Below, piece after piece: positions 2,296 through 20,379 of a stretch of DNA of 64,000 nucleotides. Source of the stretch: an uncultured Pseudomonadota bacterium (GTDB taxonomy: Bacteria; Pseudomonadota; Gammaproteobacteria; Burkholderiales; SG8-39); assembly GCA_937907425.1 (NCBI GenBank), contig CALCIE010000052.1, positions 1,063-65,062 of the forward strand, in the 5' to 3' direction. The notes below the pieces were generated by a model. The model ran no database searches. It saw only the letters and a list, made by a program, of their open reading frames with translations, and was not told where the DNA came from. The position numbers and the translations under genes were made by a program. Position 1 is the first letter of the stretch, and each line of letters opens with the position of its first letter.

Positions 2296-3588
2296 GTGTG
2301 GCGTACGACCAATGGTGGTAACGCCGTCGCGCTGATCTGCATGGGCACCCGCCCGGAGATCATCAAGATGGCGCCCGTGTATCGAGCGCTGAAGAATTCC
2401 AGGCTCGGCGTTGCGATTCTGCACACGGGACAACACGAGGAAATGGCCTGGCCGCTCTACGAGTTCTTCGGTATGCGGCCTGACCATTGTGTCAATCTCA
2501 ACCGCTCCTCGTCGGCGTTGTCTCATCTGAGCGCGCGCCTGCTCGAAGAAGTGGCGGGCGTGCTCGAAGTCGTGAAACCCAAGGTGGTGCTCGTGCACGG
2601 CGACACGTCGAGCACCTTGAGCGCCGCGCTCGCCGCGTTCTATCAGCAGATCCCCATCGGGCACGTGGAAGCCGGACTGCGAAGCGGCTCGATGTACGAC
2701 CCCTTTCCCGAAGAGATGAACCGCGCACTGGTCGGCCGAGTGGCGCAGTGGCACTTCGCGCCGACCGCGCAGGCTGCGGAGAACCTGCGGCGAGAGGGCG
2801 TGCCGCGCGAGCGCATCCATATCGTCGGCAATACCATCGTCGATGCCGCGCTATGGGGCTGCGAGCAGCTCGAACGGCGCGCGGAGTCTGCCGCGGAACT
2901 GATCGACAGCGGGCTCGGTCACGTGCCGACGCTGCTGCAGAAGCGTGATCGCAAGCTGATCCTCGTCACGGCTCACCGGCGCGAGAACTGGGGCGGCGGC
3001 ATCGCCGGCATCGCCCAGGCCGTTCGCAGACTGCTCGAAGAACGCGAAGAACTCTGCGTGGTCTGGCCGGTGCACGCCAACCGCATCGTGCGTGACACGG
3101 TGTATGTGGGCTTTCAGGGCATGGAGGATTCGGCGGCGAAGCGGCTGGTGTTGTGCGAACCGCTCAATTACACCGCACTGCTCTGGGTGCTGCGGCACGC
3201 GTGGATCACGATGACCGATTCGGGCGGCATCCAGGAGGAGGCGATCGCCGTCAAAGTGCCCGTGCTGGTGCTGCGCGAGACTACCGAGCGGCCCGAACTG
3301 CTCGCCGCCGGCGGCGGGGTACTCGTCGGTACCGATCCGCGGGCGATCGTCGAGCGCGTCCGCTGGCTGCTCGAAGACGAAGCCGCCCACCGGCGCATGC
3401 GCTCAGCGAAGAATCCGTTCGGAGACGGCCACGCTGCCGAGTACATCGCGCGCATTCTCGAGCAGGCGCTCGTTCCCCAGGATATTTCGCTGTCGCTGCC
3501 GCAACGGCCGTGCTTGGAGGAATGGACCGCGCGCGCGGCGGCCTGGAAGTTCGCGTCGTCCTCACCGCCCCGGTTGCCGGCGAATTAG
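2296..3588 (+). CDS. wecB: UDP-N-acetylglucosamine 2-epimerase (non-hydrolysing), WecB/MnaA type
   Basis: Motifs ICMGTRPEIIKMAPV, HTGQHEEM, VLVHGDTSSTL, GHVEAGLRS, PEEMNR and TDSGGIQEEA. GTG 2296 is preceded by GGAGGG (2281-2286). The longer ORF-track start (1984) lies in a low-GC3 leader. Confidence 0.85.
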   Translation: MWRTTNGGNAVALICMGTRPEIIKMAPVYRALKNSRLGVAILHTGQHEEMAWPLYEFFGMRPDHCVNLNRSSSALSHLSARLLEEVAGVLEVVKPKVVLVHGDTSSTLSAALAAFYQQIPIGHVEAGLRSGSMYDPFPEEMNRALVGRVAQWHFAPTAQAAENLRREGVPRERIHIVGNTIVDAALWGCEQLERRAESAAELIDSGLGHVPTLLQKRDRKLILVTAHRRENWGGGIAGIAQAVRRLLEEREELCVVWPVHANRIVRDTVYVGFQGMEDSAAKRLVLCEPLNYTALLWVLRHAWITMTDSGGIQEEAIAVKVPVLVLRETTERPELLAAGGGVLVGTDPRAIVERVRWLLEDEAAHRRMRSAKNPFGDGHAAEYIARILEQALVPQDISLSLPQRPCLEEWTARAAAWKFASSSPPRLPAN

Positions 3589-3600
3589 GAAGGACGCGCC

Positions 3601-5208
3601 ATGGACGCAAGCGACGTCCTTGCCATCGCGATGGTCTTCGCGATGGTGCTGCTGATATTCGTCAGCGTCGCCTTCCTCTTGAGCGGGCTCGACGACCTCT
3701 TCTTCGACATCTGCTACTTCTGCCGTTGGGTCTACCGGCGTCTTTTCGTCGAGCGCAAGCGCGTGCCGTTGACGGAGGATGCGTTGCTCGCGCGGCCTCA
3801 GCAGCCGATCGCGGTGATGGTGCCGGCATGGGACGAATCGGCCGTGATCCGGCCCATGCTGACGAACATGGTGCGCTCGCTGAACTACGACGCCTACCAC
3901 GTCTTCGTCGGAACCTACCCCAACGATCCCGCCACCCATCGCGAAGTGGACGCGGTTTGCGCGCTGTATCCGAACGTGCACCGGATCGTCACGCCGCACG
4001 ACGGGCCGACCAACAAGGCCGACTGCCTCAACTGGATCCTGCAGGGTATCAGGCGTTACGAGCGCGAAAGCGGCATCCGCTTCGAGATCTTCGTCATGCA
4101 GGACTGCGAGGATGTGATCCATCCTTTGTGTTACCGCGTGTTCAACCTGCTCGTGCCGCGTTTCGACATGGTGCAGGTGCCCGTGCTGGCGCTGCTGCCC
4201 AAGTGGTATCAGTTCACCGCCGGGCACTACATCGACGAGTTCGCGCAGCTGCACTACAAGGATCTCGCGGTGCGCGAGCGCCTCAACCGCAGCCTGCCGG
4301 CCGCCGGGGTGGGGTGCGCCTTCAGCCGGCGTGCCTTCGACATCATCGCCGAACGGAACAACAACATCGTGTTTTCCGTCGACTCGCTGACGGAGGACTA
4401 CGAATTCGGCTTCCGTATGAAGCAGTACGGGCTGACGCAGATCTTCGCGCAGGTGTGGGTGCAGGGACAGCGGCATCGCAGTCCCTTGCCGTCGCCAAAC
4501 CTGGTCTGCGTGCGCGAGTTCTTTCCGGCGACCCCGCGTGCCGCGGTCCGGCAGAAGTCGCGCTGGGTGCTCGGCATCACGCTCCAGGGCTGGGAAAACC
4601 TCGGCTGGATGCGCGGCTTCTGGACGCGCTACATGCTGGTGCGCGACCGCAAGGGGCTGCTCACCAACCTGGTCAACGTGCTCGCCTACCTGGTGGTGTT
4701 CGCCGTGACCGGGATGTGGCTGGCCAATCATTTCTATCCCGACTCCTACCGCTATCCGCCCTTGCTCGAGAAGGGCACCTGGCTGTGGTACGTGATCCTC
4801 GCCAACGGTGTGCTGCTCGTACACCGGGTCTCGATGCGCGCCTACTGCGTCTATCGCATATACGGCTGGCAGCAGGCGCTGCTTTCGATACCGCGCATGG
4901 TGTGGGGCAACTTCATCAACTTCCTCGCCACGGTGCGCGCGATCCGTCTGTACCTGCGCTACCTGCATACCGGAAAACTGATCGCGTGGGACAAGACCCA
5001 GCATGTCTATCCCTCGGAAGATCAGCTCGGCGCGGTGGTGCGCCCGCGTCTCGGCGAGCTGCTCGTCCAGTCGCGGATCATCACTCCCGAGCAGTTGCAG
5101 GACGCGCTCGCGCGTCAACAGCGGCACCGGGCGAGGCTGGGGGAGATCCTCAAGGAGATGGGGCTGGTTCAGGAGGATCAGCTCGCGTTCGCATTGAATG
5201 GACACTGA
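3601..5208 (+). CDS. nfrB: Inner-membrane family-2 glycosyltransferase (NfrB-like polysaccharide synthase) with C-terminal MshEN-like c-di-GMP-binding module
   Basis: N-terminal TM helix. GT2 core (AVMVPAWDES..., VMQDCEDVIHP, LTEDYEFGFR, QKSRW = Q/RxxRW-type motif). Several C-terminal TM helices. The last 55 aa carry two RLGxxL...L...L motifs. AGGAAGGA RBS lies before ATG 3601. Confidence 0.75.
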   Translation: MDASDVLAIAMVFAMVLLIFVSVAFLLSGLDDLFFDICYFCRWVYRRLFVERKRVPLTEDALLARPQQPIAVMVPAWDESAVIRPMLTNMVRSLNYDAYHVFVGTYPNDPATHREVDAVCALYPNVHRIVTPHDGPTNKADCLNWILQGIRRYERESGIRFEIFVMQDCEDVIHPLCYRVFNLLVPRFDMVQVPVLALLPKWYQFTAGHYIDEFAQLHYKDLAVRERLNRSLPAAGVGCAFSRRAFDIIAERNNNIVFSVDSLTEDYEFGFRMKQYGLTQIFAQVWVQGQRHRSPLPSPNLVCVREFFPATPRAAVRQKSRWVLGITLQGWENLGWMRGFWTRYMLVRDRKGLLTNLVNVLAYLVVFAVTGMWLANHFYPDSYRYPPLLEKGTWLWYVILANGVLLVHRVSMRAYCVYRIYGWQQALLSIPRMVWGNFINFLATVRAIRLYLRYLHTGKLIAWDKTQHVYPSEDQLGAVVRPRLGELLVQSRIITPEQLQDALARQQRHRARLGEILKEMGLVQEDQLAFALNGH

Positions 5209-5392
5209 GCACGAACGACGAGAGACGGAGGTGGGATGGAACGAGGTGTTGGAGCGTTATGCGCGGCGCCGGTCGCACTACCGTTAGGTCGCCCACGAGG
5301 AGCGGCTTCAGCATTTCAAGAGCGCGGTCCAGGGCATCACGGCCCCGGACTCCGCCTGGGTGAACCCCGCGGACTTCGTTCATTCCCCGTAA
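5198..5392 (+). pseudogene. Coding-like 64-codon frame interrupted by an in-frame TAG (5285-5287); possible decayed or recoded small gene
   Basis: ATG 5198 overlaps the nfrB stop. The frame reads MDTEHERRETEVGWNEVLERYARRRSHYR*VAHEERLQHFKSAVQGITAPDSAWVNPADFVHSP*. Downstream of the TAG, third positions are about 85% G/C and second positions about 44%, as in real genes here. There is no ATG/GTG/TTG between the TAG and GTG 5360, only 10 codons before the TAA. Confidence 0.3.
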
Positions 5393-5449
5393 CGCGGCGG
5401 ATCGGGCGTGTTGTTGCAACGAAGGACATTACGACATGAGGAGGCCACC

Positions 5450-5866
5450 ATGGCTAGGAGGATCTGGACCGTTCTGATGTTGGCACCGCTGACCGTTTCG
5501 GTCGCACTGGGTTATGCCGGCGAGGCGGGCGCCAAACCCGCGGAGCCTCCCGGGGCCGCGAAAGCCAAGCCCAATGACCCCAAGGCGGCTGCACCTAAGC
5601 CGAATGGCCCCAGGGCGGATGCGCCTAAGCCGGCGCCCAAGCCTGCGCCCAAGCCGGTGCGCATCCAACCCCCGCCCAAACCTGCGGTGCAGACCGTGGT
5701 GGCGCCGGGGACGTGGAAAGTCCACAGGCATCGCGGCAACTCGCCGCTGTTCAAGATGGGGCGCGAGAAGGAGTGGGTGGAGCATCCCGGACCGGGCAAG
5801 CGTCCCGTCATCAAGCGCCAGGACCGCCCCGGCAACGGGAACGGCAAAGGCAAGGGTCCACGATAG
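5450..5866 (+). CDS. Small exported Pro/Ala/Lys-rich protein (138 aa), function unknown
   Basis: GAGGAGG lies 6 nt upstream of ATG 5450. Signal peptide MARRIWTVLMLAPLTVSVALGYA, then (A/K)P repeats (APKPNGPRADAPKPAPKPAPKP), then a basic Gly/Lys tail. The earlier GTG 5408 in the track has no RBS. Confidence 0.6.
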   Translation: MARRIWTVLMLAPLTVSVALGYAGEAGAKPAEPPGAAKAKPNDPKAAAPKPNGPRADAPKPAPKPAPKPVRIQPPPKPAVQTVVAPGTWKVHRHRGNSPLFKMGREKEWVEHPGPGKRPVIKRQDRPGNGNGKGKGPR

Positions 5867-5907
5867 CCGCTTCGCGCGCGGTATTGCCGCTCGCAAAGGA
5901 GAGAGTC

Positions 5908-7572
5908 ATGAAAGCACGTCTCTATGCGTTCATCCTCGCGCTGGTCATGGCGCTTTGGGCGCCGTTCGGCGCGGCGCAGACCACGCCCATCAAAGCGCTG
6001 GTGCTTTACGATGCGCCGGCCACGGGGGACTACCAGAAACTGGCGTTCGCGTACGCGATCATGCTGCGCAATCTGCTCGGCCACTGGAACACCGATGTGG
6101 ATCTGCAGCCGGTGGAGCAGTACGCGAGCTCCCAGGTCGAGCAGTACGACGTGACCTTCTACATGGGCGGGATCTACGACAACCAGTTGCCCGCGAGCTT
6201 CATCGACGACGTGCACAACACCGACAAGACCGTCGTCTGGTTCAAGTACAACCTCTGGCAATACGCCTGGAATCCCAACTACGACTTCCGCGACCGCACC
6301 GGCCTCGGCTTCTACGGCCTGGTCGGCATGAACGGCCAGCCCACGCCGCAGAACCCGGAACCCGGCTTTTTCGACACAGTCGAGTACAAGGGCAAATCGC
6401 TGGTCAAGTACTACAGCTTCCAGAACGGCGTGGTCGCCGCCGACCCCGATCTCGGCATCGTCGGCGTCGAGGACCCGGCCAAGGCGCAGACGCTGGTGAC
6501 GATCCGCAATTCCAAGACCGGCCAGGTCGCGCCCTACATCGTGCGCGCCGGGAACTTCTGGTACGTGGCCGACATGCCGTTCTCCTACATCGGCCCGCGC
6601 GACCGCTATCTGGTGATCTGCGACATGCTGCACGACATCCTCGGCGTGCAGACGCCGACCATCCACCGTGCGATGGTGCGGCTGGAGGATGTGGGCGCGC
6701 TGGTGCTGCCCTCCACCATGGTGACGCTCACCGACTATCTGCACGGCAAGGGCATTCCGTTCTCGATCGCGGTGATCCCGTTCTACCGCGACCCGCTCGG
6801 CTGGTACAACGACGGCGTGCCGATGGAAATCCATCTCGCCGACGCCACCAACCTGCGCGCTTCGCTCGACTACGCCATCGCGCGCGGCGCGAAGCTGGTG
6901 ATGCACGGCTATACGCACCAGTACGGGTCGATGCGCAATATCCACACGGGCGTGAGCGGTGACGACTTCGAGTTCTGGAACGCGGTGGACAACGAACCCG
7001 TGCCGGAAGACTCGATCGCCTGGGCGCTGGGACGGCTCGATGCCGGCCTGGCCGAACTGCAGCTCAACGGCTACCACGTTTTCGCCTGGGAGGCGCCGCA
7101 TTACCAGTCCTCGCCCAAGGCGATCCGCGCCGCCGTCCAGCGCTTCCCCACCACCTACCAGCGCGTGGTGTACTACACCTCGGACGAGCCGGATTTCAAC
7201 CCGGCCAATCCGGCCCGGGATTTCGCGGTGGGGCAGTTCTTCCCCTACGTGATCGAGCGCGACTACTACGGCCAGCGCGTGCTGCCGGAGAACCTCGGCA
7301 ACATCGAATACGACATCAGGGAGATCGATCCCACCTCGAACTTCGACTACACCTGGGAGGATCTGCTGCTGAACGCTGAGATGGCGAAGGTGGTGCGTGA
7401 CGGTTTCGCCTCCTTCTTCTTCCATCCCTTCTGGCTCGATCCGGACGTCGGCACGCCGGGCTTCGAGGATTTCAAGAAGCTGGTGGAAGGCATCACCGCG
7501 CTCGGCTATACCTGGGTGGGCGCGCATACCCTGACGCCGCCCGGCTGGCTGGGCCTCAGCCAGGCACCCTGA
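5908..7572 (+). CDS. Exported polysaccharide deacetylase-like protein (DUF2334-type C-terminal domain plus unknown N-terminal domain)
   Basis: AAAGGAGAGA RBS and signal peptide MKARLYAFILALVMALWAPFGAAQ. The C-terminal half has RLEDVG, FSIAVIP and HGYTHQY motifs typical of the DUF2334/NodB-like deacetylase fold. The N-terminal ~250 aa is unassigned. Confidence 0.7.
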   Translation: MKARLYAFILALVMALWAPFGAAQTTPIKALVLYDAPATGDYQKLAFAYAIMLRNLLGHWNTDVDLQPVEQYASSQVEQYDVTFYMGGIYDNQLPASFIDDVHNTDKTVVWFKYNLWQYAWNPNYDFRDRTGLGFYGLVGMNGQPTPQNPEPGFFDTVEYKGKSLVKYYSFQNGVVAADPDLGIVGVEDPAKAQTLVTIRNSKTGQVAPYIVRAGNFWYVADMPFSYIGPRDRYLVICDMLHDILGVQTPTIHRAMVRLEDVGALVLPSTMVTLTDYLHGKGIPFSIAVIPFYRDPLGWYNDGVPMEIHLADATNLRASLDYAIARGAKLVMHGYTHQYGSMRNIHTGVSGDDFEFWNAVDNEPVPEDSIAWALGRLDAGLAELQLNGYHVFAWEAPHYQSSPKAIRAAVQRFPTTYQRVVYYTSDEPDFNPANPARDFAVGQFFPYVIERDYYGQRVLPENLGNIEYDIREIDPTSNFDYTWEDLLLNAEMAKVVRDGFASFFFHPFWLDPDVGTPGFEDFKKLVEGITALGYTWVGAHTLTPPGWLGLSQAP

Positions 7573-7587
7573 TCGAGGGATGCAGCC

Positions 7588-10500
7588 ATGGCGCTGCAGG
7601 TCGGACCGAGCGGCGCCCGGCGCGCGCGAAGTTGCGCGCGCCGGGTGTGCACGGCGGCGTTGTGCGGACTGCTGTGCGCGGGCTTGCCTGTTCACGCGCA
7701 AGGCGAAGCGCCGCCAACGGCGGCGGAAGTCGACAAGCAGCCGAACTGGCTGGTGCAACAGATCCGGCGCTTCCGCAGTCATCCGCATCTGGATCGCGGT
7801 TACCGGTTGAAGCAGGCGGGCCGCCTCGAGGAAGCGCGCGCGGCCATGGCCAGGGCGCTGGAGATGGACCCGGGCAATGCACAGGCGCGCAGCGATTACG
7901 TCGCGCTGCTGGAGCGCCTGGGCGTGTACGAGGAAGTGCTGCTGCATTCCGAACCGCTGCTCAAGGACCCGGACCGGCGCGTGCACGCCCTGTTCGCGCA
8001 GGCGCGCGCCTACCATGCCCTGGGCCGGCTGGAAGACGCCAGCGCCGCCCTGAAACAGGTCGTGGGCACGAGCGACGTCGAGACGGCCAAGCGCCTGAAC
8101 GCGGCCGATGAGCTCGCCGATCTGCTGATTCGATGCGGCCGTTACGAGGAGGCGTTGCAGACCCTGGCCTTGCTGCCCGGCGGTTTCCGTGTCCATCTGC
8201 GGCGGGGGATCGCGAAGGAGGCGCTGGGACGCCATGACGAGGCGGAACAGGCGTTCCGCGCCGCGCTCGCCCAGGCGGGCGATTCGGGCGAACGCGTGCA
8301 GGCGCTGGAGTATCTCGGTCAGAACGCGATCAGACGCAAGGACTGGAGCGCGGCGCGAGCCCATTACGATGCCGCGCTCTCGCTCGATCCGGCCAACGTG
8401 AGGCTGATGCGCGCGCTGGTCCAGGCGGCGCATGGTGCGGGCCATACGCGGCAGGCGCTGCGCTGGGCCGGCGAGGTCGTTGCGCGTGAGCCGACATCCG
8501 CGGATCGCGAGGTGCTCGCCAATTTGCGCTATGCGACCAGGGATTACCCGGGCGCGGTGCGCGACTATCAGGCGTTGTTGAACGAGACTGCCGACCCCGC
8601 GCAGCGCGCAAGGTTGCTCGCCGCCATCGGCTACGCCTATTTCGACATGGGGCGCTACGCAGAGTCGGCCCGGGCTTTCGAAGAGGCCGTGCAGCTCGGC
8701 GACGAGCCGCGTTTGCGCGGGGCATTGCAAGCCGCCCGCGAGGCGGAGCGCGATCCGCTCTCCGAAATGGAGGTGCTGCAGGCAGCGTTGCGGCACAAGC
8801 CCACGGCGGAAGCGCATTTGCGGCTTGCCGCGCTTTACCTGGAACGCGGCGACGAGGACGCGGCCATTGCGCACCTGGAGCAGGCCGTGCGCTTCAGGCA
8901 GGCGCCGCGCGTGCGTGCGGCGGCCTATCGGCAACTGTGGCCGCTCTATTACGCCCGCGAGGATCTGGGCGAAGCGCGGCGGGCGCTCGAGCAGCTCACC
9001 GCGCTCGTTCCTCACGACGCCGAGACGTGGCGCGCGCTGGCGCACATCCATTTCGAGCGGCAGGATGTGGTCGCCGCGGCGGAGTGCCTGCGGCGCAGCA
9101 TCGAAGCGGCGCCGAGCGTCGAAGCCTACCGTTCCCTGGCTTACGCCCTGGCGACCCTCGGCGCATGGGAAGAGGCTGTGCGGGTGAACCGGGCATGGCT
9201 TGCCATGCCCGACCTGCCTGCCTCAGATCGTGCGGAGGCCTACGAACGGCTGGCGATCGCGCAGACGGAAGCCGGCGACCGGACGGGCCTGGTGCATACC
9301 CTCCAGGAAGCGATCGCCAACGGCATCGACAACCGTTTGATGCGCGAACGGCTGGGGCTCGCCCTGTTCGCGGAACGACGCTGGCGCGAGGCGCTGCCGC
9401 ATTTCCGTGCCCTGTATCAGCGCGAGCCGGACGCCATGGCCGCCCTCTACCTCTCGCGCTGCTACGCGGCGATGGGCAAAACAGGGCTGGCCGTGCATTT
9501 CGGCCGCCTGGCCCTGGGAGGCGCCGAGGATCTGCCCGAGGCCGAACGCAGGCAACTGCAGACCGAACTGGCCTATCTCTACGCGGACGAGTCGGAGTAC
9601 GCCGCAGCGGCGCGCATGTGGGCCGCGGTCATTGCGCGCGACGGCGATCCGCTGCACGTGCATCGTTACGCCGTCGCGCAGCACCGTGCGGGCAATGTGG
9701 AGGAGGCGCGCAAGGCCTGGCGTTCCATCGCCGACGGCGCGCTGCCCAGGGAGGAAGAGGTCGAACGGCTCAATCAGCTCGCCACATTCGCCGCAGCGGA
9801 AGGCGATCTGACCGAGGCGGTGAGGCTCTATGCGCAGGCCGACGCCCTGGCGCCCGGCGCGTACAACCAGTACCGCATGGGGCTCGCCTTGCAGGAGCTC
9901 GGACGCCGCGAAGAGGCGTTGCGCGCCTTCGAAACCGCGTATCGGCGCGAGCCCACGGCCGCCTATGCGCTCGCGCTCGGCTACGCCTACGTGAACGCCA
10001 AACGTTATGCCGAGGCGGCGCCGATCCTCGAGCGTGCGAGCGCCCTCGATCCCGACAACCTGAGGCTCTATCAGGACATCGCCTACGCCTATCTGCACAG
10101 TTTGCAGAACGACAAGGCGATCGCGTGGTTCAAGAAAGGCATCGATGCGCGGCTCAGGGCGCGCGAGGAGGCCGGCCAGGCTGCGAAGATGGATGCCGAC
10201 AGGCGTCCCGGCGCGCGCAGGGAAGACATGCACGGAGCCGGAACCGATACCTCCATCCGCCTCGCGGCACTGGACGACCAGGCCGTTTCGCCGAGGGAAA
10301 CCGATGCGGTGTCCGGCCATACGGCGTTGGCGCTTGCGACGCCGTCCGCGCGGTACGGGGCGCTCGTACAAAGCGCACCGGCAGCCGGTCTGCCGCAGCA
10401 CGCCGATCCCGAGCTGGAACGTATGCGCGACGAAGTGGCCCGGCTGGAGAAGAACTGGAACTTCACCTTCTATCAGGCCTACAGCCCGGGACACGAAGGC

Positions 10501-11172
10501 ACCGACCCGGGTGTGCCTTCGACCGGCGGTTCCGTCGTGCCTTCGCAGGGCGGCGTGGAGATTTCCTACCGCCCGCCGGTGGTGGGCTTCCGCGACGAGC
10601 GCATTTTCGACATCTACGGGCGCGTGCTGTGGTCCAACCGGCCGCGCTCGCTGGACATGGAAAGCGATTCGCTGCAAGGCGGCATCGGCCTGCGCTACAA
10701 GCCGTTCCGCGCACTGCAGCTCTACGTGAGCGGCGAGAAGCTGTTCCGGATCGGTGACAACGCCCAGAACGACTGGCTGTTCAGGCTGAGTTACGGCTGG
10801 ACCGACATCCACGACCGCAAGTTCGGGGGCGAGACGGACTGGAACTACAGCAGCCTCTATCTCGACGCGGGCATTTTCACCGACGAGGACCATACGCGCG
10901 CCTTCTACGGGGAGCTGCGCCAGGGCAGGACTTTCAAACTCGGCGAGCAATGGCTGCTCACGCCGCATCTGGTGGTGAACGGCCGCTACGAACATCCGAA
11001 TTTCTCGCCGGGCTCCTACTGGCAGGCGGGCGCGGGGCTGTCCTTGAAGTTTTTGTTCAATGCCACCCGCTACGCCTCCTACCGGTCCAATATCGAGCTG
11101 CTGCTGCACTACAAGGTCGGCATGGCGCATGTGGCGAGCGGCTGGCTGTTCACGGTGGTGGCGCGATTGTGA
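7588..11172 (+). CDS. nfrA: NfrA-like outer-membrane polysaccharide export protein (signal peptide, ~20 TPR-like repeats, C-terminal beta-barrel-like domain)
   Basis: Signal peptide ends AHA-QG. Long array of A/L/Y/R-rich 34-aa TPR-like repeats. A low-complexity linker spans about 10.14-10.44 kb. The C-terminal ~270 aa has an alternating aromatic/Gly pattern (FTFYQAYSPG..., GIGLRYKPF, LFRLSYGW, GLSLKFLF) like the NfrA C-terminal/PgaA porin domains. Confidence 0.7.
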   Translation: MALQVGPSGARRARSCARRVCTAALCGLLCAGLPVHAQGEAPPTAAEVDKQPNWLVQQIRRFRSHPHLDRGYRLKQAGRLEEARAAMARALEMDPGNAQARSDYVALLERLGVYEEVLLHSEPLLKDPDRRVHALFAQARAYHALGRLEDASAALKQVVGTSDVETAKRLNAADELADLLIRCGRYEEALQTLALLPGGFRVHLRRGIAKEALGRHDEAEQAFRAALAQAGDSGERVQALEYLGQNAIRRKDWSAARAHYDAALSLDPANVRLMRALVQAAHGAGHTRQALRWAGEVVAREPTSADREVLANLRYATRDYPGAVRDYQALLNETADPAQRARLLAAIGYAYFDMGRYAESARAFEEAVQLGDEPRLRGALQAAREAERDPLSEMEVLQAALRHKPTAEAHLRLAALYLERGDEDAAIAHLEQAVRFRQAPRVRAAAYRQLWPLYYAREDLGEARRALEQLTALVPHDAETWRALAHIHFERQDVVAAAECLRRSIEAAPSVEAYRSLAYALATLGAWEEAVRVNRAWLAMPDLPASDRAEAYERLAIAQTEAGDRTGLVHTLQEAIANGIDNRLMRERLGLALFAERRWREALPHFRALYQREPDAMAALYLSRCYAAMGKTGLAVHFGRLALGGAEDLPEAERRQLQTELAYLYADESEYAAAARMWAAVIARDGDPLHVHRYAVAQHRAGNVEEARKAWRSIADGALPREEEVERLNQLATFAAAEGDLTEAVRLYAQADALAPGAYNQYRMGLALQELGRREEALRAFETAYRREPTAAYALALGYAYVNAKRYAEAAPILERASALDPDNLRLYQDIAYAYLHSLQNDKAIAWFKKGIDARLRAREEAGQAAKMDADRRPGARREDMHGAGTDTSIRLAALDDQAVSPRETDAVSGHTALALATPSARYGALVQSAPAAGLPQHADPELERMRDEVARLEKNWNFTFYQAYSPGHEGTDPGVPSTGGSVVPSQGGVEISYRPPVVGFRDERIFDIYGRVLWSNRPRSLDMESDSLQGGIGLRYKPFRALQLYVSGEKLFRIGDNAQNDWLFRLSYGWTDIHDRKFGGETDWNYSSLYLDAGIFTDEDHTRAFYGELRQGRTFKLGEQWLLTPHLVVNGRYEHPNFSPGSYWQAGAGLSLKFLFNATRYASYRSNIELLLHYKVGMAHVASGWLFTVVARL

Positions 11173-11182
11173 AGGAGGGCGG

Positions 11183-12235
11183 ATGAAAAGGCGGTGGCTG
11201 TGCGGCGTTGCCTTGGGGCTGGCACTGGTGACGGCGGTGGTCTGGGCATTCCCGCGCGGGCAGGCGGACGGCGCCGCGCCCCTGCGGCTTTCGGGGACGT
11301 ACCTGCAACTGACCGCCGGCCATCTGGAATGGCGTGAGGAGGACTGGGAAGAACTGTTCGCCTATTTCCGCGAGCTGGGGCTTTCGGAGCTCATCGTGCA
11401 ATGGTCGGCCTACGAGGACAGCCGCTTCTATCCCGACGCCATGGCGCCCGGCACGAAGCCTTCGCCGATCGAGAGCGTCCTGAGGCTGGCCGACCGGACC
11501 GGCATGCGGGTAAGGCTTGGCCTCGCCTTCGAGGAGCGATACTGGACCGAGCTCGCCAAAAAGCCTGAGGAGCTTGCGCCGTATCTGGAAACGCTTGCGC
11601 AGCGTTCGGTGGCGATCGCGCAGGCCTTGTGGCCCCTGGCCCGCGAACACGTGTCCTTCACCGGCTGGTATATCCCGCAGGAAATCGACGACGAGAGCTG
11701 GCGCGAGCCCGAATACCGTCAATTGCTCCACGACTTCCTCGCGCGGCTCGGCCGGGCGTTGCACGAGATCGCTCCCGATACGCCCGTCGCCGTTTCCGGT
11801 TTCTCCAACGGCATGACAGACCCCGTCGCCTTCGAGGCATTCTGGAAGAACCTGCTCATGCAGGCGCCGCAGATCGATACCGTGCTGTTCCAGGACGGCG
11901 TCGGGGCGCACAAACTCGATCTGTTCGAACTGCCGCTCTATGCGGCGGCCATCCGCAACGCGGCGGTCGAGACCTCGCGGGAGGTCGTGTTCATCGTGGA
12001 GCTCTTCGACCAGGTCGCCGGGCCTCCCATCGACGAGAACCCCTTCCAGGCCGTGCCGGCGGCGCTGCCGCGCATTTTGCAGCAGCTCGAAGTCGCGCAA
12101 CGCTACGCTTCCATGGCGGTGGCGTTCAGCGTGCCCGAATATCTTTCGCCCAAGGGCGGGCAGGCGGCGGGGCTGCTTTACGACGAATACCGGGTCGCTT
12201 GCGTGACGAAGGCCTGCAGGGCGGCCGGGCAATGA
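11183..12235 (+). CDS. Exported DUF4434/YbcH-like TIM-barrel (glycosidase-like) protein
   Basis: GAAGGAGGG RBS. Signal/anchor MKRRWLCGVALGLALVTAVVWA. 'GTYLQL...WREEDWEELFAYFRELGLSELIVQWS' and 'FTGWYIPQEID' resemble DUF4434-type proteins such as E. coli YbcH. The position after nfrA matches the E. coli nfr operon. Confidence 0.6.
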   Translation: MKRRWLCGVALGLALVTAVVWAFPRGQADGAAPLRLSGTYLQLTAGHLEWREEDWEELFAYFRELGLSELIVQWSAYEDSRFYPDAMAPGTKPSPIESVLRLADRTGMRVRLGLAFEERYWTELAKKPEELAPYLETLAQRSVAIAQALWPLAREHVSFTGWYIPQEIDDESWREPEYRQLLHDFLARLGRALHEIAPDTPVAVSGFSNGMTDPVAFEAFWKNLLMQAPQIDTVLFQDGVGAHKLDLFELPLYAAAIRNAAVETSREVVFIVELFDQVAGPPIDENPFQAVPAALPRILQQLEVAQRYASMAVAFSVPEYLSPKGGQAAGLLYDEYRVACVTKACRAAGQ

Positions 12236-15328: not shown

Positions 15329-15871
15329 ATGCGGAAGGGCGGAGCGCAATGCGTCGCGGCGCTGTTGTTGAGCATCTTGCCCGCCGCGCAGTCTGCGGCG
15401 GTGGATGCGGGTATCGAATTCGGCCGAGGGAAATCCAAGGATGCCTCTGAATCGGATCTCCTCAGGCTGGTCGCCCGCGGTCTCGTGCTCGGCGACGGGG
15501 AAGGGAAAGCGGCCTCCTGGTCGCTGTGGTGGGAGGCGTCGGTCGGCACCTGGCGCTACGATACGGAGAGCGGACGCAAACAGCTTCTCGATATCGGCAC
15601 GGCGCCGTCGCTGAGGTACATGAGCCGGGGCACCGCGGGCTTTTTCGGCGAGCTGAGCGTCGGCGTGCACTACCTGAGCCGGCGTTACGTGCGCGGCGAG
15701 AACGAGTTTTCCACCCGGGTACAGTTTTCGCCCACTCTGGGCGTGGGTTATCGCTTCGAGAGCGGCGCGGGCGAGATCGCGTTGCGCTACCAGCACCTGT
15801 CCAATGCGGACATCAAGCGGCCGAATCCCGGTGTGGAGTTTCTGTTGCTGAGCGTCAGTCGGAAGTTCTGA
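15329..15871 (+). CDS. Acyloxyacyl hydrolase / lipid A 3-O-deacylase (PagL) family outer-membrane protein
   Basis: Signal peptide ending AQS-AA. Small beta-barrel-like alternating pattern. 'YQHLSNA' (His-x-Ser-Asn catalytic motif of PagL). C-terminal ...LLSVSRKF. Confidence 0.65.
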   Translation: MRKGGAQCVAALLLSILPAAQSAAVDAGIEFGRGKSKDASESDLLRLVARGLVLGDGEGKAASWSLWWEASVGTWRYDTESGRKQLLDIGTAPSLRYMSRGTAGFFGELSVGVHYLSRRYVRGENEFSTRVQFSPTLGVGYRFESGAGEIALRYQHLSNADIKRPNPGVEFLLLSVSRKF

Positions 15872-15993
15872 CGGAAACGCCGGCTGGCAGAGCGGACCGC
15901 CGAAATGAAACGAGGCGCCTCTAGTGTTGCCGGCTATCGGGTGAACAGCCGTCGGAAGCGGGGTTGCCGCCGCTTGCCGGCGCTCGAACAGCC

Positions 15994-17043
15994 TCAGTTG
16001 CCGGCCTTGTAGGGCGTATTCACCGCAAAGTGTCCCACGGGCTTCCAAGGCATTTTTGCGAGCCCGAATCTGCGCAATTGCTGCAATACCCGGATGCTGA
16101 CACAAGCGGTGCGGTTTCTGAACATCGGCAGGGACAGGGGATCGAGCCCCAGCCACGGCAGATAGGGATTGCGGCGAAGCGATGCGTAGAGCTCGACGCG
16201 CACGGTCGGGCGGGTCGACAGTGTGCGTGCGTGGAAGCCCATCGTATCGGCCACAACCAGCGTATTGCCCCGGACCACCATCTTCTTCGGCTCGGGCAGG
16301 TTCATGCGGCGCAGATCTTCGAGTGTCGCACGGAACGAGCCCCGGGCATGGTAGGGAATGGGATGGTGGCGGGCGGTAATGCTCTGCTCGCGTTCCCAGG
16401 CCAGCCGTTCCGGCGTCATGCGGTGAGAGCCGGGTACGTAGGCGAAAGGCCCGTCGTCCGGGCCGACATCGTGCAGGAACAGCCAGGCCTTGGCGGTGGA
16501 GTGGAAGGTGTCCGCATGCAGAACGGATTGCGGGTCGGGCTTGCCGTCCGGCAGACCGGCCAGCACGGCCTGAATCCAATAGGTCGGTTCGCCTTTGGTC
16601 GAGGCGATGTACCGAAGCGCGTCCTTCAACGTCCGGTCGGCGCCCACCCGTGCAAGTCCGGGGCAGCGCGAGGCGAGGGCGTCGAAGTCCAGCGGAACGC
16701 GCCGGGTGATGCAGTTGCCCTGGCGCATCTCGCGCACGTCCCATGTCGCGTCGAGAACTTCGGCGCGGATTTGCTCGAAGAACTCCTGCGGCAGGAAATT
16801 CTCTTTGACGATGTAGCCGTCGCGTTCGAACGCCCGGCGATCCTCCTCCGTCAGGCTCAGAATGCGTGCCAACCGCCGTCGCCGGTATGCCGCCATCGCG
16901 GCCGCGAGCCGTACCCGATACTCGTGAAGTCCCCATTCGTTCAGCCGTCGGCTGCCGATGACGGGATTGTCGACAAAGGACTTGGCGCCGGAGGCGAGCG
17001 CGGCAACCCAGAGGGGGGCTTTGAGTATTGCGGTGGCTCTCAA
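15994..17043 (-). CDS. Phytanoyl-CoA dioxygenase (PhyH)-like Fe(II)/2-oxoglutarate dioxygenase
   Basis: 'LHADTF' (HxD), 'WLFLHDVGPDDGPFAYVPGSHR', and distal 'MGFHARTLSTR' (His/Arg) match the PhyH-family facial triad and 2OG-binding layout. Confidence 0.6.
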   Translation of the reverse strand: MRATAILKAPLWVAALASGAKSFVDNPVIGSRRLNEWGLHEYRVRLAAAMAAYRRRRLARILSLTEEDRRAFERDGYIVKENFLPQEFFEQIRAEVLDATWDVREMRQGNCITRRVPLDFDALASRCPGLARVGADRTLKDALRYIASTKGEPTYWIQAVLAGLPDGKPDPQSVLHADTFHSTAKAWLFLHDVGPDDGPFAYVPGSHRMTPERLAWEREQSITARHHPIPYHARGSFRATLEDLRRMNLPEPKKMVVRGNTLVVADTMGFHARTLSTRPTVRVELYASLRRNPYLPWLGLDPLSLPMFRNRTACVSIRVLQQLRRFGLAKMPWKPVGHFAVNTPYKAGN

Positions 17044-17242
17044 GTTCGATGCCTCGAATCTTATGGTTGTGGCGCGTCTGCCGTTTGAGGGCGCCCCTCT
17101 TTAACGGGGATCAAAGCGGCGCGCTCCCCGAGACGCGCAACCGCCTCTTTTCAGCGCGGCACATTATAAGCACCCGCTATAGTCGCACGGCGCTGTTTGC
17201 ATCGGGTTCGCCAGATGTGTCACGCTTGGCGCTTGCCGCGGG

Positions 17243-18517
17243 GTGGCCCGGCAACGGGTCTCCGCGGACACGGTAAAATCGCGCGCACGAGATCGGGGAG
17301 GGGCGGACTCGCAGAGGCTGCCCGTTGGGGCTTTGCAGCGCATCACCAATCGTCACGTCTATTATTTCAGCGGCTTCGATCCGCGCGGCGCGCGCTACTA
17401 CCACCGCCTCTATCGCGAGGAGGCCGCAAAGCAGGCGGCGCTGACCGGCACGCGCATCGAAGTCGGCCCGCGCTTGCGTGCCGGCGAGCTTTCCAAGGTG
17501 TGGACGGTACGCAGCGCCGGTCCGGACGGCGTGACCGAAACGGTCTATGAATTCATGCGCTGGGACGACATCGTGCGCCGCCATTGGACGCGCAACGAGG
17601 CTCGGCTGGCCGTCGAACTGGTACGCACCGCCTGGGCATACGTTGCGAGCGGCACGTTATGGCGCATCCTGAAAACGGCCTGGCCGCCTTTCGTCACGGG
17701 GCTTTATCCGGTGCTGTATTTTCTCGCCCTGGTCACGGCGGCTGTTTTCGCGGCGCTCGGCCTGGGCGGTTGGCTGGGCCGCCAATACGGCATCGTGGCG
17801 GGCGGCGCCGGCGCGGCCGCTGCGGCGGTGGGTGTGCTGTATCTCGGCCGCCTCGTGGAAAAGCGGTTGAGGTGCTACTGGTTGCTGCGCATCTATGCCT
17901 TCACCGTGCGCCAGGCCGGAGGGCTGCCCGAGCTGGAAGCCAGGATCGACCGCTTCGCGGAATACATGGCCCGGCAGATCGCCGGCAGTCAGGCGGATGA
18001 AATACTCGTGGTGGGGCACAGCGTCGGTACCACGATCGCCTGCTCGGCGCTTGCTCGTGCATTGGCGCGCATGCCCAAGGTCGATCGCCGCATCGCGCTC
18101 GTCACGCTCGGGCAATGCATTCCGATGCTGAGCCTGCTGCCCCAGGCGCAGAAGTTCCGGGAAGACCTTGCCCGTCTCGGGTCGCATCCCGAAGTGGAAT
18201 GGATCGACTTCACCGCCCCGACAGACGGCGCCTGTTTCGCGCTGACCGATCCGCTGCAGGCCTCCGGCATCCCGGGTGTGAGGGATATCCAGCGTCCGAA
18301 ACTGCTCTCGCCGCGCTTCATGACCCTGTTCGACGCGAAAACCTACGCACGAATCCGTCGCAACTGGTTCCGCAATCACTTCCAATACCTGATGGCGGGC
18401 GACAAGGTCGGCGATTACGATTACTTCGCCATTACAGCCGGTCCGGTGCCGCTCGCCGAGCGCTATGCGGCCCATCGTTCGGTGGTGGGCTACCGCCGCT
18501 TCAAGGTGTTCGGATGA
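17243..18517 (+). CDS. Membrane protein with lipase-like GHSVG motif (putative alpha/beta-hydrolase), family unknown; start uncertain
   Basis: High GC3 from about 17330 onward. Three or four TM helices (LYPVLYFLALVTAAVFAALGLGGWL, VAGGAGAAAAAVGVLYL). 'ILVVGHSVGTTIA' is a nucleophile-elbow-like motif. GTG 17243 and TTG 17333 are possible starts. The stop overlaps the P450 start (ATGA). Confidence 0.5.
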   Translation: MARQRVSADTVKSRARDRGGADSQRLPVGALQRITNRHVYYFSGFDPRGARYYHRLYREEAAKQAALTGTRIEVGPRLRAGELSKVWTVRSAGPDGVTETVYEFMRWDDIVRRHWTRNEARLAVELVRTAWAYVASGTLWRILKTAWPPFVTGLYPVLYFLALVTAAVFAALGLGGWLGRQYGIVAGGAGAAAAAVGVLYLGRLVEKRLRCYWLLRIYAFTVRQAGGLPELEARIDRFAEYMARQIAGSQADEILVVGHSVGTTIACSALARALARMPKVDRRIALVTLGQCIPMLSLLPQAQKFREDLARLGSHPEVEWIDFTAPTDGACFALTDPLQASGIPGVRDIQRPKLLSPRFMTLFDAKTYARIRRNWFRNHFQYLMAGDKVGDYDYFAITAGPVPLAERYAAHRSVVGYRRFKVFG

Positions 18518-19941
18518 GCAAATTCTGCCCCGTCTACCCGAAACCCAAGACCAGCCGTGCGTCGCTGCTGTGGATGTTCTTCCGCAAGCGCCGCTCGTGG
18601 CTCGACGGGCTGTTCGAGCGCAGTTACAGAATGAAAATGGGGCAGGTCCTGTTGCCGGGCCTGGACGTCTACATGGTCAACCAGCCGGAGCTGGTGCGGC
18701 GCATCCTGGTGACCGAGGCGGAGAAGTTTCCCAAGCACAAGTTGCTCGGCATGATGCTCGAGCCGCTGCTGGGGGAGAGCATTTTCACGACCAACGGCGC
18801 GATCTGGGAGATGCAGCGGCGCATGCTGGACCCCGCCTTCGCCCAGGCACGGTTGAAGAACGTGTTCCCGCTCATGCGCGACGCGGGCATCGCGCTGTGC
18901 GAGCGGTTGGACCGGTTGCAGGACGGCGCCGTCCACGATCTGGAAGTGGAGATGACGCACGTCACCGCCGACATCATCTTCCGCACCATCCTTTCCCAGA
19001 AGCTCGACGGCGACAATGCGCGCAAGGTCTTCGACGCGTTCACCCGGTTCCAGGCGCTCGCGCCGCGCGTGCTCCTGCCCCGGCTTTATCGCCTTCCCGC
19101 ATGGTTGAGGCCGTCCAAAACGGAGCGTCGGCTACGGGAGGCGGGGAACGAGATCCGCTCCCTGCTCGAGCACTTCATCCGCCCGCGCTACGAGGCCTGT
19201 CGCGCCGGCAATCCGGGCGAATACCAGGACATTCTCTCGGTCCTGCTCGACGTCGCCGATCCGGAAACGGGCAAGCGCTTCGACTACGAGGAACTCGTGG
19301 ATCAGGTGGCGATGCTCTTCCTTGCCGGCCATGAGACCTCGGCGAGCGCGCTTTCCTGGTCGCTCTATCTCATCGCCTCGGTGCCCGAGATCCAGCAGCG
19401 CATGTACGAAGAGGGGCGTGCCGTGCTCGGCAGGCGCGAGCCGGATTACGCCGACATCAAGAAGCTGCGCGTGCACTGGAACGTCTTCCGGGAGGCGTTA
19501 CGGCTCTACCCGCCGGTGGGCTTTTTCGCGCGTGAAGTGACGCAAACCACGCGCATGAGAGACAAGACCATGTCGCCCGGCGCGTCGGTCGTGATCTCGC
19601 CCTGGCTGATCCACCGGCACCGCGAGCTGTGGGAGCGGCCGGACGAATTCGATCCCGATCGCCACGATTCGCCGGAAGCCAGGGAATCGCTCCGTTGCGC
19701 TTACCTGCCCTTCGGCATGGGGCCGCGTGTCTGCATCGGGGCCGCATTCGCCATGCAGGAAGCGGTGCTGATCCTGGCGATGCTCGTGCAGCGCTATCGC
19801 TTCGAAGCGGTACCCGGTTTCGAACCGCGGCCCGTGGGCCGGCTCACGGTGCGCTCCGAAAACGGTATTCGCGTTCGACTGAACAAACGGTCGGAGGCGG
19901 ACGAAGCGCCGGCCGTTCGCGCCGAGGCGCTCAGGGGATAA
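18514..19941 (+). CDS. Cytochrome P450
   Basis: Heme loop FGMGPRVCIGAAFA, I-helix FLAGHETSA, ExxR (FREALR). ATG 18514 overlaps the upstream stop. The longer track ORF (18115) is an off-frame extension through the upstream gene. Confidence 0.85.
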   Translation: MSKFCPVYPKPKTSRASLLWMFFRKRRSWLDGLFERSYRMKMGQVLLPGLDVYMVNQPELVRRILVTEAEKFPKHKLLGMMLEPLLGESIFTTNGAIWEMQRRMLDPAFAQARLKNVFPLMRDAGIALCERLDRLQDGAVHDLEVEMTHVTADIIFRTILSQKLDGDNARKVFDAFTRFQALAPRVLLPRLYRLPAWLRPSKTERRLREAGNEIRSLLEHFIRPRYEACRAGNPGEYQDILSVLLDVADPETGKRFDYEELVDQVAMLFLAGHETSASALSWSLYLIASVPEIQQRMYEEGRAVLGRREPDYADIKKLRVHWNVFREALRLYPPVGFFAREVTQTTRMRDKTMSPGASVVISPWLIHRHRELWERPDEFDPDRHDSPEARESLRCAYLPFGMGPRVCIGAAFAMQEAVLILAMLVQRYRFEAVPGFEPRPVGRLTVRSENGIRVRLNKRSEADEAPAVRAEALRG

Positions 19942-19955
19942 GCGTCAATGAAAGC

Positions 19956-19983
19956 GCATCTTCCGTTTCCCTGAGGAAGATGC
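19956..19983 (+). other. 9-bp stem hairpin GCATCTTCC-N10-GGAAGATGC just after the P450 stop
   Basis: Exact inverted repeat read from the sequence. No clear U-tract follows, so it is an attenuator/stabiliser rather than a classic terminator. Confidence 0.35.
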
Positions 19984-20011
19984 CGGTCTTGCAACGTAGA
20001 AGCAGATAAAA

Positions 20012-20356
20012 GTGAACGAAAGACTCCTCGGCTTTCTGCTCATGTGTTTACTCGTGCCGATGGCGATCATCGGCTATTTCGTCCTCGTCTTCGTCGGTTT
20101 GTTCGGCAAGACGGAGCGGGGCAGGGCGGGCGTGCGCGCGCTGGACCATTTCGTCAACGCCACGGTCTTCAACGGCTACGCCTGGGAATCCGTATCCTCG
20201 CACGCCTGGCGCAAGCGCGACCGTCGATGGGCGAAGATCGTCATCTGGCTTACCGACCATCTGCAGAAGGATCACTGCATGCGTGCGAACAAGCGCGAGC
20301 AGGCGGTGGTGGACCTGGTGGAGAAGAAGGGGCTGCACAAGCAGACCATGTGGTAG
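20012..20356 (+). CDS. Small membrane protein (114 aa), unknown function
   Basis: High GC3. N-terminal TM helix LLGFLLMCLLVPMAIIGYFVLVFVGLF, then a basic soluble tail. The start is GTG 20012 (or ATG 20042). No strong SD. Confidence 0.5.
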   Translation: MNERLLGFLLMCLLVPMAIIGYFVLVFVGLFGKTERGRAGVRALDHFVNATVFNGYAWESVSSHAWRKRDRRWAKIVIWLTDHLQKDHCMRANKREQAVVDLVEKKGLHKQTMW

Positions 20357-20379
20357 CGTCGCGTTGCTAGGGCGTACCG

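Follow-up and report, generated by a model that had tools for sequence, protein, structure and literature searches.

A widespread variant of Nfr-type exopolysaccharide gene clusters carrying a putative DUF2334/YdaL-type deacetylase and a small partner protein

The closest known system to the gene cluster described here is NfrB-NfrA-YbcH of Escherichia coli K-12, which together with WecB constitutes the phage N4 glycan receptor (NGR) pathway (PMC8669469, PMC8669472). In E. coli, NfrB, NfrA, and WecB make the receptor glycan, and the other genes for the enterobacterial common antigen are not needed (PMC8669469, PMC8669472). In other bacteria, genes for WecB, diguanylate cyclases, and O-acetyltransferases are linked to nfrB (PMC8669469, PMC8669472), and the wecB-nfrB linkage is the rule in organisms without another WecB (Junkermeier & Hengge 2021, PMC8669469). 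We analyzed six genes on the + strand at positions 2296–12235 of a 64,000-nucleotide stretch of contig CALCIE010000052.1 from an uncultured Burkholderiales bacterium (hereafter, the window). In our reading, to which we assign a probability of about 0.72, they constitute a single operon that encodes a synthase-dependent Nfr-type exopolysaccharide pathway, in which a putative deacetylase would modify the polymer together with a small partner protein.

The cluster shares with the E. coli Nfr system the synthase family (42% identity, including catalytic and cyclic di-GMP (c-di-GMP)-contact residues), a porin with tetratricopeptide repeats (TPRs) and an NfrA_C domain, a DUF4434 protein, and a WecB-type epimerase. 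It differs in that wecB lies within the cluster, the synthase is a short form having only a 53-residue c-di-GMP unit, and a predicted DUF2334/YdaL-type deacetylase and its small partner, both absent from the E. coli locus, are added; the counterparts of NfrA and YbcH are only 22–27% identical to the E. coli proteins. The nfr clusters of Achromobacter xylosoxidans and Simplicispira suum (PMC8669472, PMC8669469) are likewise betaproteobacterial nfrB-nfrA-wecB sets enlarged by polymer-modifying genes, BcsB-like and O-acetyltransferase. Whereas these additions (AlgI/J/F-like) attach acetyl groups, the enzyme described here is predicted to remove them. Neither PMC8669469 nor PMC8669472 mentions a deacetylase in nfr clusters. 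We also found no description of the deacetylase or the small protein in nfr clusters in the literature searched, a search that left most subscription-journal papers outside its reach, so that this absence is not proof.

A parallel logic is seen in PgaABCD, which makes poly-β-1,6-GlcNAc, and in PelA-G: a c-di-GMP-responsive inner-membrane synthase, a periplasmic metal-dependent deacetylase by which an amino-sugar polymer becomes partly cationic, glycoside-hydrolase activity, and an exporter of TPRs and a β-barrel that docks the modifier. However, no component of the cluster is orthologous to Pga or Pel. The place of the PgaB or PelA enzyme, with its carbohydrate esterase family 4 (CE4) and glycoside hydrolase family 153 (GH153) domains, would be taken by a DUF2334 protein whose second domain is ThuA-like and N-terminal, not a C-terminal GH153. 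The hydrolase-like function would reside in a separate DUF4434 protein, c-di-GMP would be read by an MshE-type motif instead of PgaCD or PelD, and the precursor would be UDP-ManNAc. The ydaJKLMN genes of Bacillus subtilis, an exopolysaccharide operon under c-di-GMP control, likewise include a glycosyltransferase family 2 (GT2) synthase, the DUF2334 protein YdaL, a hydrolase, and a c-di-GMP receptor, and the JGI annotation names homologs of our DUF2334 protein "YdaL". In nfr clusters of the Ramlibacter type there is, in addition, a BcsB-like gene comparable to that for YdaN, and their gene set parallels ydaLMN. Unlike our cluster, however, the yda operon belongs to a Gram-positive organism, has no outer-membrane exporter, WecB, or small partner gene, and has as its receptor a separate degenerate GGDEF protein.

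Gene content and the short synthase

The cluster had been proposed, in an original prediction made from the sequence without database searches, as six co-directional genes of an uncharacterized hybrid of Nfr and Pga logic. An open reading frame (ORF) check confirmed the coordinates and lengths listed below and the intergenic gaps of 12, 241, 41, 15, and 10 nt. All six ORFs show a coding-type G+C content at third codon positions (0.76–0.87; window G+C, ~65%), and a JGI gene call on a 210-kb contig of metagenome 3300000383, independent of the window ORF calls, gives the identical six products. Profile searches and BLASTP against E. coli K-12 NfrB, NfrA, and YbcH supported every gene assignment, as did a structure model for g4; the expected matches to Epimerase_2, GT2-type families, DUF2334, TPR plus NfrA_C, and DUF4434 were all obtained above the curated cut-offs. 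The features are as follows, in window coordinates.

1831–2295, +: upstream intergenic region of 465 nt without a coding-type ORF; presumed promoter and 5′ leader
2296–3588, +: g1, WecB, non-hydrolysing UDP-GlcNAc 2-epimerase, 430 aa (TIGR00236, Epimerase_2)
3601–5208, +: g2, NfrB-like processive GT2 synthase, short form, 535 aa (NF012033, identity with E. coli NfrB)
5047–5205, +: C-terminal MshE-type c-di-GMP module of g2, residues 483–535 (NF053729)
5209–5449, +: g2-g3 gap, 241 nt, spanned by metatranscriptome contigs
5450–5866, +: g3, small basic secreted protein, 138 aa, without a family match; partner of g4
5657–5749, +: conserved core of g3, residues 70–100, VRIQPPPKPAVQTVVAPGTWKVHRHRGNSPL (alignments and motif scan)
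5908–7572, +: g4, predicted periplasmic DUF2334/YdaL-type two-domain deacetylase, 554 aa (DUF2334, AlphaFold2 (AF2) model)
6667–7488, +: predicted deacetylase barrel of g4 with CE4-like motifs (motifs invariant in 16 homologs)
7588–11172, +: g5, NfrA-like outer-membrane export protein, 1194 aa, with signal peptide, long TPR region, and C-terminal barrel (TPR families, NfrA_C)
10657–11127, +: NfrA_C domain of g5 (PF13283, 99.1 bits; cut-off 25)
11183–12235, +: g6, periplasmic DUF4434/YbcH-like protein, 350 aa (PF14488)

The g1 product matches the wecB equivalog TIGR00236 with 415 bits (cut-off 210) and Pfam Epimerase_2 with 348 bits. Its gene sits 12 nt 5′ of the synthase gene; the physical linkage pointed out in the original prediction is thus real, although not new (PMC8669469). 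The g2 product aligns with E. coli NfrB over all of its 535 residues (42% identity, E = 1e-145) and matches Glyco_tranf_2_3 (109 bits) and NF012033 (636 bits; cut-off 537). Membrane segments lie at the N-terminus (residues 1–38) and internally (residues 351–378). E. coli genetics has shown that D169, D267, W330, L490, G491, and L537 of NfrB matter (PMC8669469, PMC8669472), and all six of these experimentally mutated residues are retained in g2, as D168, D266, and W322 in the glycosyltransferase domain and as L484, G485, and L532 at the c-di-GMP site. Around the former, D168/D171, T264-E-D266, and Q318-K-S-R-W322 match the signatures D169, TED267, and QxxRW330 that Junkermeier & Hengge (2021) defined for E. 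coli (PMC8669469).

The tail of g2 consists of two 24-residue RLG motifs, R483–Q506 and R512–H535, separated by the 5-residue spacer QRHRA, and the protein ends at the last residue of the second motif. Wang et al. (2016) described such a 53-residue unit, with two tandem 24-residue RLGxxhhxxGhhxxxxLxxxLxxQ motifs and a 5-residue spacer, as a complete c-di-GMP-binding domain (PMC5013675). The tail matches NF053729, an MshE-related c-di-GMP motif, with 63.6 bits (cut-off 38), and aligns to residues 6–55 of Vibrio cholerae MshE (5htl) and to the c-di-GMP domains of Thermus PilF. The absence of a Pfam MshEN (PF05157) match to g2 at E ≤ 0.01 is explained by g2 having no more of the domain than its 53-residue N-terminal sub-domain; the MshEN-like module of the original prediction therefore stands as this minimal unit only. 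The last ~200 residues of E. coli NfrB are missing from g2. We considered whether g2 might be a truncated pseudogene and rejected this, as a ~540-aa form with the same endpoint is widespread and the gap that follows is too short for the missing 200 residues. Indeed, the short form ending in the 53-residue tail is common and conserved among homologs, while other lineages have synthases of 711–763 aa with a full MshEN domain. We predict that the tail probably makes the synthase c-di-GMP-dependent.

The g5 product matches many TPR families and, over residues 1024–1180, NfrA_C; its C-terminal 248 residues align with E. coli NfrA (22% identity, E = 3e-8). The g6 product matches DUF4434 with 182.5 bits and E. 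coli YbcH with 27% identity (E = 8e-16). A sequence match to PDB entry 4h41, a TIM-barrel "putative alpha-L-fucosidase" (E = 3e-10), suggests that g6 is probably a glycoside-hydrolase-like enzyme with a TIM-barrel fold. The products of g3, g4, g5, and g6 have signal-like N-termini, that of g5 ending VHA/QGE, and g3, g4, and g6 each have a single N-terminal hydrophobic segment.

Low-depth contigs from four metatranscriptomes map to all six genes. Two of them (2076–2414 and 2270–2478) extend from the upstream region into g1, three (5014–5378, 5354–5614, and 5319–5581) span the 241-nt gap between g2 and g3, and one (5835–6141) spans the g3-g4 junction. We found no terminator-like site between the genes, and fewer such sites across the cluster than in shuffled sequences. 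A sigma-70 consensus match was absent from both the upstream region and the cluster; the 241-nt gap had no Rfam match and no unusual folding (z-score 0.57), and a repeat search of the gap and the cluster returned chance-level repeats only. A single transcription unit is thus weakly supported.

A putative deacetylase and its small partner

The g4 product matches Pfam DUF2334 over residues 254–527 (149.6 bits) and has no PgaB or Polysacc_deac_1 match in Pfam or NCBIfam. A sequence search of the PDB returned nothing at E ≤ 1; information came only from the fold search. For this, an AF2 model was built with 16 homologs (mean predicted local confidence, pLDDT, 76; predicted TM-score, 0.79) and compared with known structures by Foldseek. 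The C-terminal half resembles CE4 deacetylases (4ny2, 8t0j, 2c1g, and 6h8l; E = 1e-5 to 1e-3), the matches including Vibrio chitooligosaccharide deacetylase, ArnD, PgdA, PdaC, and acetylxylan esterases. The N-terminal half resembles ThuA-like or class-I amidotransferase-like proteins (4e5v, 4jqs). As modeled, g4 is therefore a ThuA-like N-domain followed by a CE4-like barrel. The best whole-length match was the N-deacetylase region of human NDST1 (8cd0; E = 1.7e-7), in which an N-terminal α/β domain likewise precedes a CE4-like barrel and which acts on an N-acetylated hexosamine polymer. At 11% identity and a TM-score of 0.32, this is a likeness of fold and architecture and not family membership; unlike g4, NDST1 is eukaryotic, located in the Golgi, and fused to a sulfotransferase.

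The 16 homologs share four invariant motifs: R258-L-E260-D261 (TFDD-like), H333-x3-H337, W394-E-A-P-H398-Y399, and F-F-H506-P. Each lies at the C-terminal end of a predicted β-strand in the model, and we take them to correspond by position to CE4 motifs 1, 2, 3, and 5. Homologs across the Burkholderiales are 56–76% identical to g4. Given the modeled fold and the invariant residues, which include an Asp-His-His set of the metal-triad kind as well as residues of catalytic type, an active, metal-dependent CE4-like deacetylase is the best call. The sequence does not decide between N- and O-deacetylation, but removal of N-acetyl groups is most likely. The PgaB-like deacetylase of the original prediction thus holds for the predicted activity and the CE4-like fold as modeled, but by family g4 belongs to DUF2334/YdaL and carries an additional ThuA-like N-domain.

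The g3 product matches no Pfam or NCBIfam family. Across four close relatives, the Pro/Lys-rich N-terminal linker varies but the C-terminal half hardly changes, indicating that g3 is a real gene. A single-sequence search found three relatives and a profile search of 1.84 billion representatives found five, so that the wider family is recognizable only by its position and a short motif. In nearly every locus that we inspected around g4 homologs, lone copies in Burkholderia included, a small ORF with a signal peptide lies directly 5′ of the DUF2334 gene. These ORFs have in common a short core, V-x-[PA]-P-P-x-P...[PA]-G, and, behind it, a basic stretch that is often rich in His. Expressed as a regular expression, the g3 core occurs just 5′ of g4 homologs in 66 of 81 loci; the expectation, derived from the rest of the loci, was 0.017.

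Furthermore, in-frame fusions that place the small protein at the N-terminus of the deacetylase are found in three lineages (P0115, P0120, and Nitrosococcus watsonii). With isoelectric points of 11.4 for mature g3, which is very basic, and 4.8 for the acidic g4, the two are complementary in charge. We conclude from these sequence relationships that g3 and g4 probably act as a unit, with g3 as a dedicated partner of the deacetylase. The extra small protein of the original prediction is thus an exported-type gene, as proposed, but not an independent addition. We know of no counterpart of this conserved partner for the Pga and Pel deacetylases.

Distribution, surroundings, and alternative explanations

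To survey how often the pair and the nfr genes co-occur, we retrieved 80 genome loci around g4 homologs and used the six window proteins to annotate them; the 54 loci that extend 8 kb or more to each side were regarded as well-flanked. An nfrB-like gene lies within 10 kb of the g4 homolog in 58 of the 80 loci and in 43 of the 54 well-flanked ones, usually joined by wecB and an NfrA_C protein and often by a DUF4434 gene. Linkage is thus frequent but facultative, and the hybrid architecture, for which the searched literature holds no functional description, is not unique to the window. The order of the components varies, with at least five gene orders in Burkholderiales and some Gammaproteobacteria. 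That of the window recurs in a Nitrosomonadales metagenome-assembled genome (MAG), an Azoarcus MAG, and two Variovorax genomes, and, with wecB inverted, in Noviherbaspirillum. The order is wecB-nfrB-nfrA-small-DUF2334-DUF4434 in Comamonas testosteroni, nfrB-nfrA-wecB-small-DUF2334 in the Ralstonia pickettii group, wecB-small-DUF2334-BcsB-like-nfrB-nfrA-DUF4434 in Ramlibacter and Caenimonas, and DUF2334-wecB-nfrB-...-nfrA-DUF4434 in Halopseudomonas and Allohahella. The g4 homologs remain ~60% identical where nfrB drops to 38–46% and nfrA to 25–30%, a pattern that either strong constraint or horizontal spread of the module could produce.

Individual loci carry further genes. In C. testosteroni ATCC 11996 (L034, 1858–3207), a gene of the phosphoglucosamine/phosphomannomutase family lies directly 5′ of wecB and may be a further precursor-supply gene. 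Clusters of the Ramlibacter/Caenimonas type encode a BcsB-like protein between the DUF2334 gene and nfrB, of 683 aa in Ramlibacter albus (L008, 11642–13693). In N. watsonii (L086, CP002086), fragments of an IS630-family transposase at 10943–11792 interrupt the cluster, separating nfrB from DUF4434-DUF2334, and nfrA lies in inverted orientation. Near the lone pair of Burkholderia cepacia (L001–L003, ~15470–20442) are genes for a dCache-GGDEF diguanylate cyclase and a 7TMR-DISM histidine kinase with an AraC-type response regulator, a hint that the lone module, too, is tied to c-di-GMP signaling.

On its upstream side, the window cluster adjoins the 465-nt intergenic region; downstream, a convergent gene for a short-chain dehydrogenase (SDR) begins 19 nt past g6. 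Housekeeping genes elsewhere in the window, for example those for SMC, LigA, GlnD, BamA, RseP, and PpsA, place the cluster in the core chromosome. Matching sequence is present in compost, fertilizer, and bioreactor metagenomes, and the closest genome relative is a Nitrosomonadales MAG. Two co-directional genes upstream (2–1492 and 1522–1830, +), encoding the C-terminal 496 aa of a 608-aa protein and a 102-aa protein, have no Pfam match. We rejected them as parts of the cluster because they are kept in place only in the closest relative (L006; 49% and 75% identity). A PagL-type lipid A 3-O-deacylase gene (15329–15871, +) lies 3 kb downstream of the cluster. A Capsule_synth (KpsS/KpsC-like) gene at 21206–22600 (−; 278 bits) indicates that the organism has at least one further surface-polysaccharide pathway encoded nearby.

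Several observations weigh against parts of our reading. The Nfr polymer is chemically undefined even in E. coli, and CE4-like folds also include O-acetyl esterases. If g4 were such an esterase, or another hydrolase of the CE4-like superfamily, its product would not be cationic; Foldseek also matches the model to the CE4 acetylxylan esterases 7fbw, 2cc0, and 2c71, the first motif of g4 has Glu-Asp where the canonical one has Asp-Asp, and O-acetyltransferase genes occur in related nfr clusters of other bacteria (PMC8669469, PMC8669472). We consider this unlikely. No O-acetyltransferase gene is present in the six-gene cluster, N-deacetylases (NDST1, Vibrio chitooligosaccharide deacetylase, ArnD, and PgdA) head the structural matches, and the sole acetyl group supplied by the encoded pathway is the N-acetyl of ManNAc. 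As for the synthase, its tail departs from the published motif (PMC5013675) at position 10 of motif 1, which is Arg for the consensus Gly (Gln in E. coli NfrB), and at the final residue (position 24 of motif 2), which is His for the consensus Gln; Lys at position 7 of motif 2 is a further departure. In addition, the nfrB homologs of Variovorax (L037 and L065; ~508 aa), which share the gene order of the window, end without the 53-residue module, so that c-di-GMP control may be lost there. The g2 tail could accordingly be viewed as a degenerate remnant, with the synthase regulated by transcription only, a possibility that also fits the lack of the rest of the MshEN domain and of the ~200-residue C-terminal region, and the absence of a GGDEF gene within 10 kb of the cluster. 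We regard it as the less likely view: the 53-residue unit is a complete binding domain by the published description, the tail exceeds the curated NCBIfam cut-off, neither RLG triplet nor any of the Leu residues mutated in E. coli has been lost, E. coli NfrB binds c-di-GMP at 1 µM although it, too, is without Gly at position 10, and the short form with this tail is widespread and conserved.

The tie of g3 and g4 to the Nfr polymer has likewise to be weighed. When sampled from the nfrB side, the picture was mixed: N. watsonii and one other genome have the DUF2334 gene, whereas Desulfovibrio sp. JY and an Omnitrophica genome carry only wecB-nfrB-nfrA-DUF4434. The core cassette thus consists of four genes, to which the deacetylase is a frequent but facultative addition, and this core works without DUF2334 in other lineages and in E. 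coli. Conversely, the g4 homolog and its small partner occur with no nfr genes nearby in Burkholderia (B. cepacia and B. ambifaria) and Trinickia, on a Ralstonia plasmid, and in a Desulfobulbaceae MAG, so that the module is not strictly tied to Nfr. The pair might then be an autonomous mobile module that serves another acetylated envelope polymer (peptidoglycan, another exopolysaccharide, or lipopolysaccharide) and tends to insert in or next to nfr clusters, leaving the Nfr polymer unmodified. Its variable position within these clusters, the 241-nt gap 5′ of the pair in the window, and the slower divergence of g4, as expected from horizontal spread, would agree with this. We nevertheless find it improbable. 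Linkage within 10 kb of nfrB is kept in 80% of the well-flanked loci despite repeated rearrangement in Beta- and Gammaproteobacteria, which argues for selection on the linkage. In the window, the gaps from the genes of the pair are otherwise only 15–41 nt, and RNA contigs span the 241-nt gap, although this RNA support is weak because the contigs are of low depth and metatranscriptome libraries can contain DNA. Moreover, all well-studied synthase-dependent amino-sugar polymer systems, Pga and Pel, need such an enzyme. Finally, the AF2 model of the natural fusion P0115 shows no confident docking of the small-protein segment (pLDDT 25–40, no secondary structure). Disordered as modeled, the segment gives no information on a binding place, and the shallow alignment available for it may be the cause.

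Proposed pathway and implications

We propose the following pathway. In the cytoplasm, g1 would make UDP-ManNAc from UDP-GlcNAc, and g2 would polymerize it and thread the chain across the inner membrane, the 53-residue module probably conferring c-di-GMP dependence. In the periplasm, g4 would strip some of the acetyl groups, most likely N-acetyl groups, yielding a partly cationic ManNAc/ManN polymer; we thus infer, as did the original prediction, a partly de-N-acetylated ManNAc polymer. The small, basic, and presumably disordered g3 may bind or regulate g4, and g6 may serve as a hydrolase-like trimming or quality-control enzyme. The TPR protein g5 would scaffold the periplasmic enzymes and export the chain through the outer membrane.

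The cluster is a widespread, uncharacterized variant of Nfr systems and not a singular hybrid. New here are the NDST-like two-domain architecture modeled for g4, a constant small partner with Rosetta-stone fusions, a facultative two-gene module that rearranges, and a minimal c-di-GMP tail on the synthase. Nfr was recognized as an exopolysaccharide system only in 2021, and this variant carries precursor supply and a predicted modifying enzyme in one probable operon. Its presence in culturable bacteria (C. testosteroni, the R. pickettii group, Variovorax paradoxus, and N. watsonii) offers a tractable route to the structure of the polymer. It is also a route to a first activity assignment for the large DUF2334/YdaL family, including the yda operon of B. 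subtilis.

Deacetylation usually decides the export and surface adhesion of such polymers, and in an Nfr pathway it may matter for recognition by N4-like phages as well. More tentatively, g3 and g4 might constitute an obligate, horizontally mobile "polymer-editing" cassette that plugs into Nfr machines, and possibly others, and turns neutral poly-ManNAc into a cationic adhesin. In that event, g3 would be a subunit of a new kind that regulates or targets a periplasmic carbohydrate deacetylase. It could, for example, inhibit the enzyme and be released at the exporter, deliver metal through its His-rich stretch, or act as a tether. N4-like phages carry glycan-deacetylase tailspikes of their own; if the cassette is indeed of this nature, deacetylation on the host side could therefore tune phage susceptibility.

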